From a bacterium (GTDB lineage Bacteria > UBA8248): a DNA stretch of 64,000 nt. The position numbers and the translations under genes were made by a program. This document shows positions 54,250 to 58,503 of the stretch, in pieces. Under the pieces are notes generated by a model, which was given only the letters and a program-made list of their open reading frames with translations, was not told the DNA's origin and did no database searches. The stretch spans positions 1,408,001-1,472,000 of the forward strand of contig OZ241326.1 in the NCBI GenBank assembly GCA_965199855.1, read 5' to 3'. Within the stretch, counting starts at the first letter, position 1. Each line of letters opens with the position of its first letter.

Positions 54250-54891
54250 CTAGCCCCGGTATTTCGCAAAAGTCTCGCCGATGCTCGCGCCTTTTTCGAG
54301 TTCCGAGGTGATTTTCTCTTCGATTTCGGCCAGTTCATCCATTTTTTCGATGACTTCCCCGAGTCGTTCCCTGGGAATTACGACCACGCCGTTGACGTCT
54401 CCCAGAATGAAGTCGCCCTGCCGCACCGCGGCGCCTCCGCAGTTGATGGGCTCTCCCACGCTGCCGGGAACCGTGTATCCGCCGCTGCCGTGAACCGATA
54501 CGCCCCTGGCGAACACGGGGAAGCCCATGCGCCGGTGCTCCTCGATGTCTCTGGCTCTCCCGTCCAGCGCGACGCCGCCCAGCTTCATCGCCCGCGCCCG
54601 CGCGCTCATCATGCCGCCCCAGTTGGCCGTCGTCGCGCCGGAGGGGACGCTGATGACGACGACGCTCCCCTCGGCGGCCGCGTCGATGTGGTGCGTCCCG
54701 CGCCTGGGCAGGGGGCCGCCGCCGGCGGGAATCATCTGAACCGTATGGGCCTCTCCAGCCATCCGGCAATCGTCATCCGGCGACAGCAGGGCGATGTCGG
54801 GCATGTGCCCCCGGATGTTCAGCTTGTCGAAAGCGTCCGCCGCCTGGCAGGTGGAATAGCGCTTCAGGCGCTTCGTCAAATCGTTGCTCAC
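54250..54891 (-). CDS. RraA/HMG aldolase family protein
   Basis: ANWGGMMS, DGRARDIEE, GDFILGDVNGVVVIP. Confidence 0.88.
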   Translation of the reverse strand: MSNDLTKRLKRYSTCQAADAFDKLNIRGHMPDIALLSPDDDCRMAGEAHTVQMIPAGGGPLPRRGTHHIDAAAEGSVVVISVPSGATTANWGGMMSARARAMKLGGVALDGRARDIEEHRRMGFPVFARGVSVHGSGGYTVPGSVGEPINCGGAAVRQGDFILGDVNGVVVIPRERLGEVIEKMDELAEIEEKITSELEKGASIGETFAKYRG

Positions 54892-54969
54892 GGGTTTCTC
54901 CTGAATCCTCGCGCGAAGAGCCCCCGGCGGGAGGCGCGCATGAGGCGATTGCGGGAAGGCCGCGGGCGC

Positions 54970-55726
54970 CTATGCGCGAAATTCCAAAAAGCGCGCGCCC
55001 TCCGGGTCGAGTTCCTCCAGAGCCTTCAAGCTCGTCCGCGCTCGGCGGAGGGGTTTGCGCCACGACGCCCGGGCGATGCAGGTCGAAGCCTGTTTTCTCG
55101 ATCACCTCGTCCATCGAATGGCCGGCGTGAACGCTGGCGACTTCAAGCCCCGTCGGTTTTTTCTCGAACACGGCGATGGGCGTCACCACGTGGCTCAGGC
55201 TCCCGGATTGCGTCGAAAAATCGACTTTGGGCACGAGAAATCGCCTGTCGTGCGTCGTTCGCGCGATGATGGTTCGCTTTACTCGCGGCATGATGACGGC
55301 GCCTCCCCCTCCGCCGGGAAGCCTCACCTTCGGCCGGAGCGGGTCGCCGATGTAGCTCATGTTGGCCCGTCCCTGCTTGTCGAGCTGGGCCGCGCCCAGA
55401 AAGGCCGCGTCCGCCTCGCCGCGCGCGAAAAGATCGTAGATGTCCGGGTTCGAGAACAGCGCGGCGGCGCCATGGCAGAGCTCGGAGTCCACCGTGCTGG
55501 CCGGCATGAAGCGGGGCTTCGGGTCCACGGAGCCCGCGACTTCCATGAGCGCGCAGTTGGGCGCGTGAAGCTTCTTCGCCAGGAAAATCGCGACCATGGG
55601 GAGCGCGCAGTTGGCCCCGTGGAACACCTTTTCGCCGTCTTCGATGAGGCGAGCCAGCGTGACGGCCATCTGGTTGCCGGCGCGAACCACGCGCTCGGGC
55701 GGCGATGCGCGGCGGGCGCCCATCAT
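54970..55726 (-). CDS. Family I CoA-transferase beta subunit (GctB-like), with a 1-nt insertion near 55028
   Basis: HAPNCALMEV, FLGAAQLDKQGRAN, RLPGGGG, TGFDL; natural C-terminus KALEELDPEGARFLEFRA* lies in the shifted frame. Confidence 0.82.
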
Positions 55727-56550
55727 CCCCGGGCCGCGCCCCGCGCGGGCGCTTTCCCGGCGCTCGCGAGATATTCCCGAAGCCCGCTCTCGCTCCGCGT
55801 CAAAGCCATGTAGCGGCGCATCTCCTCTTTGTCCACCCCGTAGTATGGGTGGCAGCTGCAGGGAGACGCGCCGCCCGGCGCTTCGACGACCGCCTTGACG
55901 AGAAAGCCGGGGATGCTCGTTCTCTCGGGTTCCGACGCGATTTCCCCGGGCGCGGCGATTCGCTCCGCCGTGAGAATCACCCCTTTTCGCGCCGCGCGCG
56001 TCATCTCGACGTCATAATGCCTGTTTCCCAGAATCCGGGCGTTGCCCTGCGCGTCCGACATCTGGACGTGGATCAGCGCCCAGTCCGGCTTCAGGGCGGG
56101 GATCGCGTGGAGCTCCTCGTTCGTGTAGGGGTCCCGGATCGTGAAGATGCCGCTTTGCTCCGGAATGTCGCTCCCCTCGAAGCCGCGGATGGGCTGGAAG
56201 GGAACGCCGTAGGCTGCGGCCCGCAGCCCGGCGAGAACGCTGGCTCAGGCGTGCTCGGTGAGGCCGGTCATCCCTTTCTCTATCGCCTTGCGATAGTTGG
56301 GCGCCAGCCCGAATTCCGCCTCGAAGGTGACGATGCCGCTGACGACCCTCCCGAGCGCGCCCGCGGCGCAAAGAAGGTCGGCGTCGTAGCCCGGCGAGGG
56401 CTTGATGAGCGTCAGGCGCCGAAGCCCCGCGCGCGCGATTTCCCGCGCGAGCGCGGCGGGCGTTCTGTGCAGAAGGGTGCCGCCGACGCTGATGGCGTCT
56501 CCGTCCTCGATGAGGGAGACGGCCTGCCGCAGGGAGGTTTGCTTGTTCAC
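55723..56550 (-). CDS. Family I CoA-transferase alpha subunit (GctA-like), putative selenoprotein (UGA at 56245-56247)
   Basis: One frame: VNKQTSL...IEDGDAISVGG...EHA-U-ASVLAGLRAAAYGVPFQPIRG...IPALKPDWALIHVQMSDAQGNA...PGGASPCSC; AGGAG RBS. Confidence 0.82.
56205..56233 (-). promoter_or_regulatory. Putative bacterial SECIS element
   Basis: 11 nt after the UGA: CGCCG-GGCTGCG-ggc-CGCAGCC-ta-CGGCG bulged hairpin with G-first apical loop. Confidence 0.65.
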
Positions 56551-56778
56551 GGTCGCTCCTCGTCCGGTCGTTCGAGGCTCATGCGGCGCGTTGAAAAATC
56601 CACGATGCCGCAGTCTAGCACAAGAAGGCGCTTCGCGCCTCCCGTCTTTCACGTTCGCCGCCGGGCGGCTTCGCGGGGTTCATTGACCGCGAACGTCGGG
56701 ATGGCGTAAATATCGCTGAAGCGAAGAGTTTTTATGGGCGGCATGTCCATCCGCGTGAATCCATCGAAAGGGCGTGAA

Positions 56779-57291
56779 ATGGCGCGAATTTCCCAGGTTG
56801 AGCCGGAACGGGCCGAAGCGGCCGCGAAGCGCATCATGGAGAATCTGCAAAAGCAGTTCGGCGTGGTCATTCCCCCGGTGAAGGCGCTGGCCCACAAGCC
56901 GGATTTTTTGCGCTCCCTGCTGAGCCTGACCACGGTGGCGGACGGCCCGGGGGAAATCTCCGTCGGCTTCAAGGAAGTCCTGAACATTCGCGCGTCGGTG
57001 CTCAACGGGTGTCATTTCTGCGTGAACATGCACTCGAACATGGCGAGAATGCGCGAGGTGGACGACGAGAGGACGAAAGCGGCGCGGGAGGGCTCCGCCA
57101 GCGATCTCTTCGATGAGAAGGAAAAGGCGGCACTTCGCCTTTGCGAGGAAAGCACGCGGGGGGTGCGCGTTTCGGACGAGACGTTCGAGGCGCTGAAGGC
57201 GCACTATTCGGAAGCGCAGATTGTGGAGCTTCTCGGCGCCGTCGCGCTCATCAACGCCTGGAATCGCCTCATCGTGGGAATGGGCTTTTAG
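56779..57291 (+). CDS. AhpD/CMD family protein (CxxC)
   Basis: KEVLNIRASVLNGCHFCVNMH, LFDEKEKAAL, INAWNR. Confidence 0.88.
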   Translation: MARISQVEPERAEAAAKRIMENLQKQFGVVIPPVKALAHKPDFLRSLLSLTTVADGPGEISVGFKEVLNIRASVLNGCHFCVNMHSNMARMREVDDERTKAAREGSASDLFDEKEKAALRLCEESTRGVRVSDETFEALKAHYSEAQIVELLGAVALINAWNRLIVGMGF

Positions 57292-57324: not shown

Positions 57325-58503
57325 TTAGAGGCTCAGCGCCGCCCGGCTCACCGTGAGCTCCGTTTCTCCCAGAATCTCGGATGAGGTGAGTTTTCCGCTC
57401 ATCACGTCGATCAGTTCCTTTTCGAGCAAGTCCCGCGCCTCGCGGACGCGCATGGCGCCTTCCATGACGCCGCTGATGTCCACGTCGATGTTCTCGGCCA
57501 TCGTCCGGGCGGTTCGGGGGTTTCCGGTCACCTTGACGGTGGGAGAGATGGGGTGTCCGATGGGGTTTCCGATGCCCGTCGAGAAGAGGATCGCCTGCGC
57601 GCCGCTCGCCGCGAGGGAGGTGAGGTTCTCCACGCCGGCGCAGGGGGCGTCGGCGAAGATGACGCCTCGCTTCGAGGGGCGCTCGCCCACGCCGACGACC
57701 TCGACGATGGGGTGGCGGCCCGCCTTCTTGACGGCGCCCAGGCTTTTTTCCTCGATGGAGGAGAGCCCGCCCCGGATGTTGTCCGGCGCCGGATTCGAGC
57801 CGATGAAATCGACGCCGAGGCTTTCGGCGTAATCGACGGCGCGCTTCGCCGAGGCGACGATTCTGCGGGCCGTTTTTCTGTCCGCGGCCCTGCGCGCGAG
57901 AAGGTGCTCGGCGCCCACGATTTCCAGCGTCTCGGAAAAGATGACCGAGCCGCCCGCTTCCACGACCCTGTCGGCGACCATCCCCGTCACGGGATTCGAG
58001 ATGACGCCGCTGGTGGCGTCCGACCCTCCGCATTCGGCGCCGATGGTGAGTTCGCCCAGCTCGCAGCGAACGCGCCTGGCGGACGCGATGTGCCGCGATA
58101 GCCCGGCGGCGAGCTCGACGACGCGGGAGGCGGCGCCGAGCGTGCCCCCGGTTTGCTGGATGTTCACGGACTCGATCGGCATCCAGGGAGAGGCCCTCGC
58201 CGCCGCTTCGGCGATGGCGTCCGCGCTCCTGGGTTCGAGGCTGACGACGATGGCGGCCCCTACGTTCGGGTGGGCGGCGGTGTGCCCCATCACCCGCCAG
58301 TGCTGCGCCTCGTCCTCGCCCATCAGCGCGCGTCCGAACGACGTGTTGACGGGGGTGGCGCCGCGCGCCAGCGCGCCGATTCTGCGGACGATGGGGTTTG
58401 AATTGTCCATCCCGCTGACGATGGCGAGATGATTCCGGCCGCCCGGCGGGCCCTGGGGTCTCCTGTAGCCCCAGAAGACGGGCGTCCCCCTTTTCCCCGG
58501 CAC
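57325..58503 (-). CDS. UxaA-family dehydratase/lyase large subunit (altronate dehydratase or SuyB-like)
   Basis: FWGYRRP, GRNH, HPNVG, ECGGSDATSG, SLGAVKKAG, FSTGIG. Confidence 0.85.
   Translation of the reverse strand: MPGKRGTPVFWGYRRPQGPPGGRNHLAIVSGMDNSNPIVRRIGALARGATPVNTSFGRALMGEDEAQHWRVMGHTAAHPNVGAAIVVSLEPRSADAIAEAAARASPWMPIESVNIQQTGGTLGAASRVVELAAGLSRHIASARRVRCELGELTIGAECGGSDATSGVISNPVTGMVADRVVEAGGSVIFSETLEIVGAEHLLARRAADRKTARRIVASAKRAVDYAESLGVDFIGSNPAPDNIRGGLSSIEEKSLGAVKKAGRHPIVEVVGVGERPSKRGVIFADAPCAGVENLTSLAASGAQAILFSTGIGNPIGHPISPTVKVTGNPRTARTMAENIDVDISGVMEGAMRVREARDLLEKELIDVMSGKLTSSEILGETELTVSRAALSL

Follow-up and report, generated by a model that had tools for sequence, protein, structure and literature searches.

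We analyzed a 64,000-nucleotide stretch of DNA from a bacterium of the lineage UBA8248 (assembly GCA_965199855.1, contig OZ241326.1, positions 1,408,001 to 1,472,000 of the forward strand), hereafter called the window, in which a minus-strand gene encodes the alpha subunit of an enzyme with the coenzyme A (CoA)-transferase fold. This gene contains one in-frame TGA, as codon 102, and comparison with its relatives indicates that it very probably encodes selenocysteine (Sec). The best joint explanation of the data, in which we have high confidence, is that Sec is inserted at position 102 of a probably non-canonical CoA-thioester enzyme whose catalytic residue would be Sec or, in homologs, Cys. 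The features on which this reading depends are listed below in window coordinates.

55723..56550, minus strand: alpha subunit gene, CoA-transferase fold, 275 codons including one UGA that is read through (PF01144, E 1.4e-20)
56245..56247, minus strand: in-frame TGA, codon 102, very probably read as Sec, based on the conservation of the aligned column
56211..56229, minus strand: hairpin resembling a bacterial selenocysteine insertion sequence (bSECIS), with an 8-base-pair (bp) helix that is conserved and co-varying
56205..56233, minus strand: extended hairpin with an outer stem CGCCG/CGGCG and a UA bulge, the minimum-energy fold in the window
54970..55726, minus strand: beta subunit gene (PF01144, E 1.5e-17), with its start codon and the alpha stop overlapping as ATGA

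The alpha gene starts with GTG, preceded by the ribosome-binding site GAGGAG, and its closing TGA shares bases with the beta start codon, ATG. Codon 102 is the sole internal TGA of the frame and lies in the context TEHA-U-ASVLAGLRAAAYGVPFQP; reading the frame confirmed the description of 56550-55723 in an earlier note on this DNA as a single frame with one TGA. The CoA_trans domain was detected in both subunits (Pfam PF01144, cut-off 23 bits; scores 74.1 and 64.2), and the NCBIfam models for 3-oxoacid/acetate CoA-transferases remained below their cut-offs (TIGR02429, 38.8 bits against 128.5; TIGR02428, 27 bits against 243.55).

Conservation of the TGA codon and its cysteine homologs

A stop-tolerant whole-genome search with the read-through protein was performed on 51 genomes of the phylum. 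It identified 35 loci in 34 of these genomes at 64–100% identity, each with an internal TGA, and none of the rows at 53% identity or less contained a stop. The TGA-bearing genomes all came from one family, covering 34 of its 42 genomes and five genera, compared with 0 of 9 genomes outside the family. When ortholog loci were examined by tblastn, the stop was found at aligned position 102 in all 38, which represented five genera and 35 distinct coding sequences; the second TGA counted in three rows of g17 is the alpha gene's own stop overlapping the beta start and not a second Sec codon. Paralogs at 49–53% identity had Cys at the Sec column in the five cases inspected (EHAC or ENAC), and a paralog resembling glutaconate CoA-transferase (Gct), 36% identical, had His.

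Protein homologs were collected by searching a collection of 5.8 billion proteins, which returned 92 proteins. At the Sec column these had Cys (52), Glu (10), His (9), Gly (3), Ala (1) or Ser (1), and the other 16 were fragments. Cys was present in every full-length database homolog of at least 43% identity (52/52). The fragments, with lengths of 153–225 residues, begin at query residues 105–124, as would be expected if gene callers stop at the TGA; one of these fragments carries the source annotation 'hypothetical protein' and comes from a Candidatus Tectomicrobia bacterium.

We also scanned metagenomes using an alignment of the alpha protein with 14 database fragments as the query, and 80 loci were kept; a query based on such fragments biases the scan towards Sec forms. 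TGA occupied the column in 43 of the loci and a Cys codon in 37 (24 TGC, 13 TGT). The TGA genes fell into about ten sub-families at 44–70% identity, with examples such as TENS-U-PVIYAGMRAAS, REFS-U-VGVMTGLRAAS and VEGS-U-TAIINALRAG, and a scan of genome contigs yielded five loci. The earlier note had stated that a subgroup of homologs has Cys at this position, and the database and metagenome homologs confirm this; the TGA itself recurs well beyond the source genome.

A FastTree phylogeny was built from 182 distinct sequences out of 194 rows, excluding fragments and high-scoring segment pairs (HSPs) that did not span residues 20–240. The Sec and Cys forms grouped in one clade with a support of 98, in which 67 members have Sec and 89 have Cys (156/156), with no other residue at the column. 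At least five switches between Sec and Cys are required within this clade, and the proteins with Glu at the column, including those similar to IpdA, form its sister group.

Separately, a weak CoA_trans-like match (E 3.9e-4, 28% identity) was observed in another genome (C1:504153-504860), where one TGA lies in an 880-residue open frame; this frame may represent a pair of neighboring genes or some other gene with recoding.

A conserved and co-varying helix downstream of the UGA

The 8-bp helix consists of GGGCUGCG (56229..56222) paired with CGCAGCCU (56218..56211) around the loop GGC (56221..56219), and it starts 18 nucleotides from the U of the UGA. The extended hairpin begins 11 nucleotides after the TGA, with a lower stem (56233..56229 with 56209..56205) and an upper stem (GGCUGCG/CGCAGCC), and is the minimum-energy fold of the 53 nucleotides after the UGA (-22.9 kcal/mol). 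[quoted passage not shown]

Among 127 HSPs covering the column, 81 had TGA, 45 had Cys and one had neither. Pairing was evaluated on 67 distinct TGA stretches and 39 distinct Cys stretches, both aligned without gaps. Across the TGA genes, the 8-bp helix was paired in 96.1% of 536 cells, and none of 500 shuffles matched its pairing and its double changes. Double-sided, compensatory changes occurred in four of the eight pairs: A-U replaces C-G in 12 sequences and G-C in two and in another two, and C-G replaces G-C in one. When the 3' partners were shifted by one to three columns as a control, pairing was 35–53%. The corresponding columns of the Cys genes, where the encoded peptide is the same, were 51.9% paired compared with 53.8% after shuffling.

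Codon usage also points to the helix. Codons 108-114 (GLRAAAY), which form the hairpin, are the seven-codon segment of lowest synonymous-codon entropy in the gene, with 0.13 bits against a mean of 1.03 across 35 ortholog sequences, and a genus with a G+C content of 36% still has the G+C-rich hairpin. The outer stem was paired in just 62.7% of cells in the 67 sequences and is therefore local to the lineage of the window at best. Thus, of the bulged architecture proposed in the earlier note, the upper helix is conserved, whereas the outer stem is not.

The RNA structure appears to shape the sequence of the alpha protein, judging from the linked occurrence of Leu/Met with Ala/Ser. At the pair 56226/56214, 12 Sec genes have A-U in place of C-G, a change that couples two replacements in the protein, Met for Leu and Ser for Ala. 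In 10 further Sec genes the Ser change occurs alone, leaving a C-U mismatch at this pair.

Selenocysteine machinery of the source genome

The source genome is a single contig of 3.04 Mb and encodes the components for Sec insertion that the earlier note had proposed to look for. The selB gene scored 371.9 bits (cut-off 242.25) and the adjoining selA gene 548.3 bits (cut-off 267.9). A tRNA-SeC of 96 nucleotides with the anticodon tca is present. The selD gene, with 344 bits, exceeds its curated cut-off and has its own in-frame TGA (2985603-2986568, outside the window); the SelD of this genome is the selenoprotein form of the enzyme. Since selA is found in 49 of the 51 genomes of the phylum, co-occurrence with the Sec machinery does not discriminate TGA-bearing genomes from the others.

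Placement of residue 102 and the beta-subunit position

The position of the Sec residue was evaluated by sequence alignment with relatives of solved structure. The best solved relatives of the alpha subunit are AibA (5mzw_A, E 8.9e-32), IpdA (6con_A, E 2.6e-30) and GctA (1poi_A, E 1.2e-28), and the best for the beta subunit is AibB (E 4.3e-29). AibA has Gly at the Sec column and GctA has Gln. MAFFT places the Glu of IpdA-like proteins in the Sec column, and the Rhodococcus IpdA chains 6co6_A and 6coj_A show one difference in the aligned stretch, Glu in one and Ala in the other, exactly at this column. We take 6COJ to be the Glu105Ala variant and Glu105 of the alpha subunit to be the proposed catalytic base.

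In the beta subunit, the Val of LMEVAGS aligns ungapped with the Glu of GctB (vESG), with Cys56 of AibB, and with the canonical Glu of two betas bearing the motifs FEGG (from the source genome) and TEGG (from locus L130). These alignments are anchored on both sides, by a conserved HAP that precedes the position by seven residues and by a Gly that follows it by two, and the AibB position aligned with the Val varies among the chains 5n00-5n03. Every listed beta subunit of the Sec/Cys clade has Val or Ile at the canonical position. The catalytic Glu of family I CoA transferases (E-x-G) is thus replaced by Val in the window.

As described in PMC5380842, Glu54 of the Gct beta subunit is catalytically essential and forms an anhydride, its position corresponds to Gly57 of the beta subunit in IpdAB, and IpdAB does not transfer CoA. 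PMC7756340 describes AibB as having Cys56 in place of the Glu and acting as a decarboxylase. As the beta subunit has Val or Ile instead of the transferase Glu, on which the acyl-anhydride and CoA-thioester intermediates of true family I transferases are formed, the enzyme is probably not a ping-pong CoA transferase, as far as the aligned residues can tell, and it is closer to the non-transferase enzymes IpdAB and AibAB than to a classical family I transferase. The rule cited in the earlier note, that family I CoA transferases use a beta-subunit Glu, does not extend to this pair: PF01144 is present in both subunits, but the canonical position has no Glu.

Beta residues at about 81-85 (55470..55484) form an ELCHG motif, containing Cys-His, that is common to the beta subunits of the ortholog group and was not found in the beta of the one Cys paralog inspected.

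Comparison with characterized enzymes and selenoproteins

The hydrolase IpdAB, which opens the ring of COCHEA-CoA in Mycobacterium tuberculosis and Rhodococcus jostii (6CO6, 6CO9, 6COJ, 6CON), has the same heteromeric fold, and it resembles the window pair in that its alpha subunit has the candidate catalytic residue, in the same column of the alignment. Both also have a beta subunit without the transferase Glu, which is Gly57 in IpdB according to PMC5380842 and Val here. However, the residue at the column is Glu in IpdA and Sec or Cys in the window clade, the Glu-type proteins are a sister group of that clade and do not fall inside it, and the window locus does not have a steroid-catabolic gene context.

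AibA/AibB, the 3-methylglutaconyl-CoA decarboxylase of Myxococcus xanthus (5MZW to 5N03), gave the best match among solved structures for alpha and beta alike. It likewise has the CoA-transferase fold without transferase chemistry, and a thiol is discussed as its general acid in PMC7756340. The two systems differ in the location of this residue: Cys56 of AibB is at the canonical beta Glu position, where the window beta has Val, whereas the Sec/Cys of the window is in the alpha subunit, where AibA has Gly.

Glutaconate CoA-transferase (GctAB) of Acidaminococcus fermentans (1POI) belongs to the same Pfam family in both subunits and has the same alpha-beta gene order. Nevertheless, Glu54 of its beta subunit is replaced by Val in the window, and GctA has Gln where the window has Sec. 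The source genome encodes a Gct-like pair as well; its alpha subunit has His and its beta subunit FEGG.

With regard to selenium, the gene resembles the bacterial selenoprotein families recognized from Sec/Cys pairs in the Sargasso Sea and Global Ocean Sampling (GOS) data: the in-frame UGA, the Cys homologs, the stem-loop and a genome with SelA, SelB, SelC and SelD are the same. In contrast to those selenoproteins, the window protein is neither a thioredoxin-fold protein nor a metal-centre redox protein.

Proposed mechanism

In the favored reading, the UGA is decoded by the SelA, SelB, SelC and SelD of the genome, aided by the 8-bp stem-loop, to give an alpha subunit with all 275 residues that belongs to a heteromeric alpha/beta enzyme with the CoA-transferase fold; this part is shown to the extent that sequence data allow. 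The Sec or Cys residue would be located in the active site, at the IpdA column that is presumably mutated in 6COJ. The enzyme probably acts on a bound acyl-CoA thioester in a manner similar to IpdAB or AibAB, and the selenolate or thiolate of the alpha subunit could function as a nucleophile or as a proton shuttle. The proposal of the earlier note, a Sec-containing enzyme with the CoA-transferase fold, gains support from the TGA/Cys conservation, the co-varying helix and the Sec machinery; the nucleophilic or redox role that the note assigned to the residue is an inference.

A more specific version, which we offer only tentatively, is that the selenolate or thiolate attacks the acyl-CoA thioester or an activated acyl carbon to give a covalent seleno- or thioester or an adduct. 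If this were true, covalent attack by Sec or Cys would be a third catalytic solution in the CoA-transferase fold, in addition to transfer by the beta Glu and the alpha Glu base of IpdA. It would also be a rare use of Sec in acyl or C-C chemistry on CoA esters instead of redox chemistry, with Cys and Sec exchanged at least five times in environmental bacteria.

Alternative explanations

Several points weigh against the favored reading. Selenium in the alpha protein is predicted from sequence, and the active-site placement derives from alignments at about 25–30% identity together with the presumed identity of the 6COJ mutation. The folding energy of the hairpin is not beyond chance (z = -0.94; 33 of 200 shuffled sequences were equally or more stable); it is ordinary for a G+C-rich sequence, so stability alone proves nothing, and it is the conservation and covariation of the helix that go beyond chance. 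The earlier note had placed the hairpin and drawn its stems, loop and bulge correctly. An Rfam scan of 56150..56300 returned three matches only, to unrelated families and with E above 4. Gene neighborhoods differ between sub-families and thus indicate no common pathway. Finally, the residue immediately preceding the canonical position is Glu in 43 of the top 44 beta rows, which represent the ortholog group of the window (L059 has Ser), and this Glu might act as the transferase nucleophile.

On this last basis, the gene could encode a genuine selenoprotein that is nevertheless an ordinary CoA transferase, with Glu61 of the beta subunit as the nucleophile and Sec102 in an accessory role, e.g., as a redox switch reset by the neighboring CxxC AhpD-like protein. 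Besides the conservation of the Glu within the ortholog group, the alternative is favored by the CxxC gene, related to carboxymuconolactone decarboxylase (CMD) and AhpD, which is divergent from the alpha gene in g1, g19 and g22. However, this neighbor was found in only 1 of the 80 metagenome loci. The residue before the canonical position is Ser in the close relative L059 (66% identity) and Asn, Ser, Thr or Ala in the other Sec/Cys sub-families, while Sec or Cys in the alpha subunit is invariant across the clade. The three ungapped, doubly anchored alignments described above also show Val, not Glu, at the catalytic position itself. We therefore consider this explanation unlikely.

The possibility that the TGA is a real stop was evaluated next to the favored reading of Sec102. 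The gene would then be a pseudogene, an assembly error, or a source of two polypeptides, one ending at residue 101 and the other a C-terminal product of re-initiation. The alpha gene is indeed split in public gene calls, with the fragments P0012 and P0032 (166-167 residues) starting at residue 105, and the neighboring beta gene is frameshifted in the source assembly. Nevertheless, the same TGA column is kept at 64–100% identity in the 34 genomes, as well as in the 43 metagenome loci of about ten sub-families; both halves of the alpha gene stay in frame, TGA-free members of the clade have Cys only, and the co-varying helix is confined to the TGA genes.

Sequencing error was addressed using Logan contigs from the runs X1, X3, X7 and X8, which belong to four studies; each contig spans the whole of the compared region. 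No contig differed at 56245..56247, and there were 0, 6, 16 and 14 differences elsewhere; the contigs thus show TGA and not the sense codon that the earlier note had allowed for. As X1 is identical to the window and may be its source, independent support for the TGA comes from X3, X7 and X8.

The frameshift in the 3' part of the beta gene, pointed out in the earlier note, is real in the window. Alignment with relatives shows one extra base at about 55028, which shifts the last ~19 codons. The extra base is present only in X1 and is omitted in X3, X7 and X8, which are near-identical strains; when it is removed, the beta subunit ends in ...ADELKALEELDPEGARFLEFRA at a TAG (54972..54970), like its relatives. 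Confined to one source, as either a mutation or a read error, the frameshift is not informative about decay of the operon, and its absence from the three near-identical strains removes the reason for the caution about decay in the earlier note. Overall, we regard a genuine stop at codon 102 as highly improbable.

An altered genetic code in which UGA is read as Trp or Gly is more improbable still, since nothing was found in its favor, 12 of 18 long open reading frames (ORFs) with high G+C at third codon positions end in TGA, as does the alpha gene itself, the homologous column has Cys and not Trp or Gly, and the genome has a dedicated tRNA-SeC together with selA and selB.

Two further observations were made on the sequence data. 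At 55813, near alpha codon 246, the X8 contig is without one base; seen in this single run, the loss would give a shifted C-terminal tail of the alpha protein in that strain or is a contig error. DNA nearly identical to 54700..56600 (0.73-0.90 of sampled words) was present in sponge metagenome runs of two studies, including X3 and X7, whose contigs extend over all of this region.

Relation to known selenoprotein families

The recoding itself is standard, and the PF01144 CoA-transferase family is not a recognized selenoprotein family. To our knowledge, catalogued bacterial selenoproteins are almost all thiol-type redox proteins or metal-centre enzymes. A full-text literature search found no paper on a Sec-containing CoA transferase, although the supplements of BSepDB, deep-Sep and Deng et al. 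2026 (groundwater metagenome-assembled genomes) might list the family. Table 1 of a 2026 review (PMC13188914) includes neither a CoA transferase nor PF01144 among its 119 prokaryotic selenoprotein families, and a term search of the deep-Sep and BSepDB papers, covering their main texts, did not find the words CoA or transferase.

The known metabolic roles of selenium would be extended by Sec in what is probably the catalytic column of an enzyme acting on CoA thioesters. The clade, whose members are named CoA transferases, is probably misnamed, with at least 156 distinct Sec/Cys members sampled and beta subunits without the transferase Glu. The analysis also corrects the annotation of Sec alpha genes, which public gene calls fragment. 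In addition, the Cys/Sec exchanges, together with an RNA helix that appears to constrain the protein, could serve as a natural experiment on why Sec is used over Cys.

Gene neighborhoods

The remaining genes of the locus are as follows.

54250..54891, minus strand: third gene of the operon, similar to RraA or to 4-hydroxy-4-methyl-2-oxoglutarate (HMG)/4-carboxy-4-hydroxy-2-oxoadipate (CHA) aldolase (PF03737, E 3.6e-32)
56734..57291, plus strand: CMD/AhpD-like gene with a CHFC motif, divergent from the alpha gene (PF02627, E 2.9e-16)
57325..58503, minus strand: UxaA/altronate-dehydratase-like gene (GD_AH_second and GD_AH_C), beyond the CMD gene

The operon of alpha, beta and RraA/HMG aldolase genes, divergent from a CxxC AhpD gene, had been outlined in the earlier note, and the Pfam assignments and the CHFC motif agree with that outline. 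In the lineage of the window, the enzyme is co-transcribed with the RraA-like aldolase/decarboxylase. The order CMD (divergent)-alpha-beta-RraA-like is found in g1 and g22, and an RraA-like homolog, like a CMD homolog, was present in 1 of the 80 metagenome loci. The UxaA-like gene beyond the CMD gene is retained in the g1 relatives L016 and L057.

Pfam analysis of 35 ORFs in five relatives revealed two different contexts. In ten Sec-type loci, no common partner was found by Pfam, which was run on 37 of the 66 ORFs called there; pieces of the alpha and beta genes were excluded, as was an ORF that overlaps alpha. The g2 loci (L055:3977-6873, L050 and L035) have the arrangement RidA-alphaSec-beta-alphaCys-CoA_binding, located by hydantoinase A/B genes and three short-chain dehydrogenase/reductase genes. 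This operon has two alpha genes per beta gene, the second of which has Cys and is 47-53% identical, as well as a CoA_binding_2 protein. In the REFS-U sub-family, a PF06684 (AA_synth) gene is located directly upstream of the alpha gene (L102:2424-2993 and L089:1104-1673), and in L102 it is accompanied by an amidohydrolase and a molybdopterin-binding subunit.

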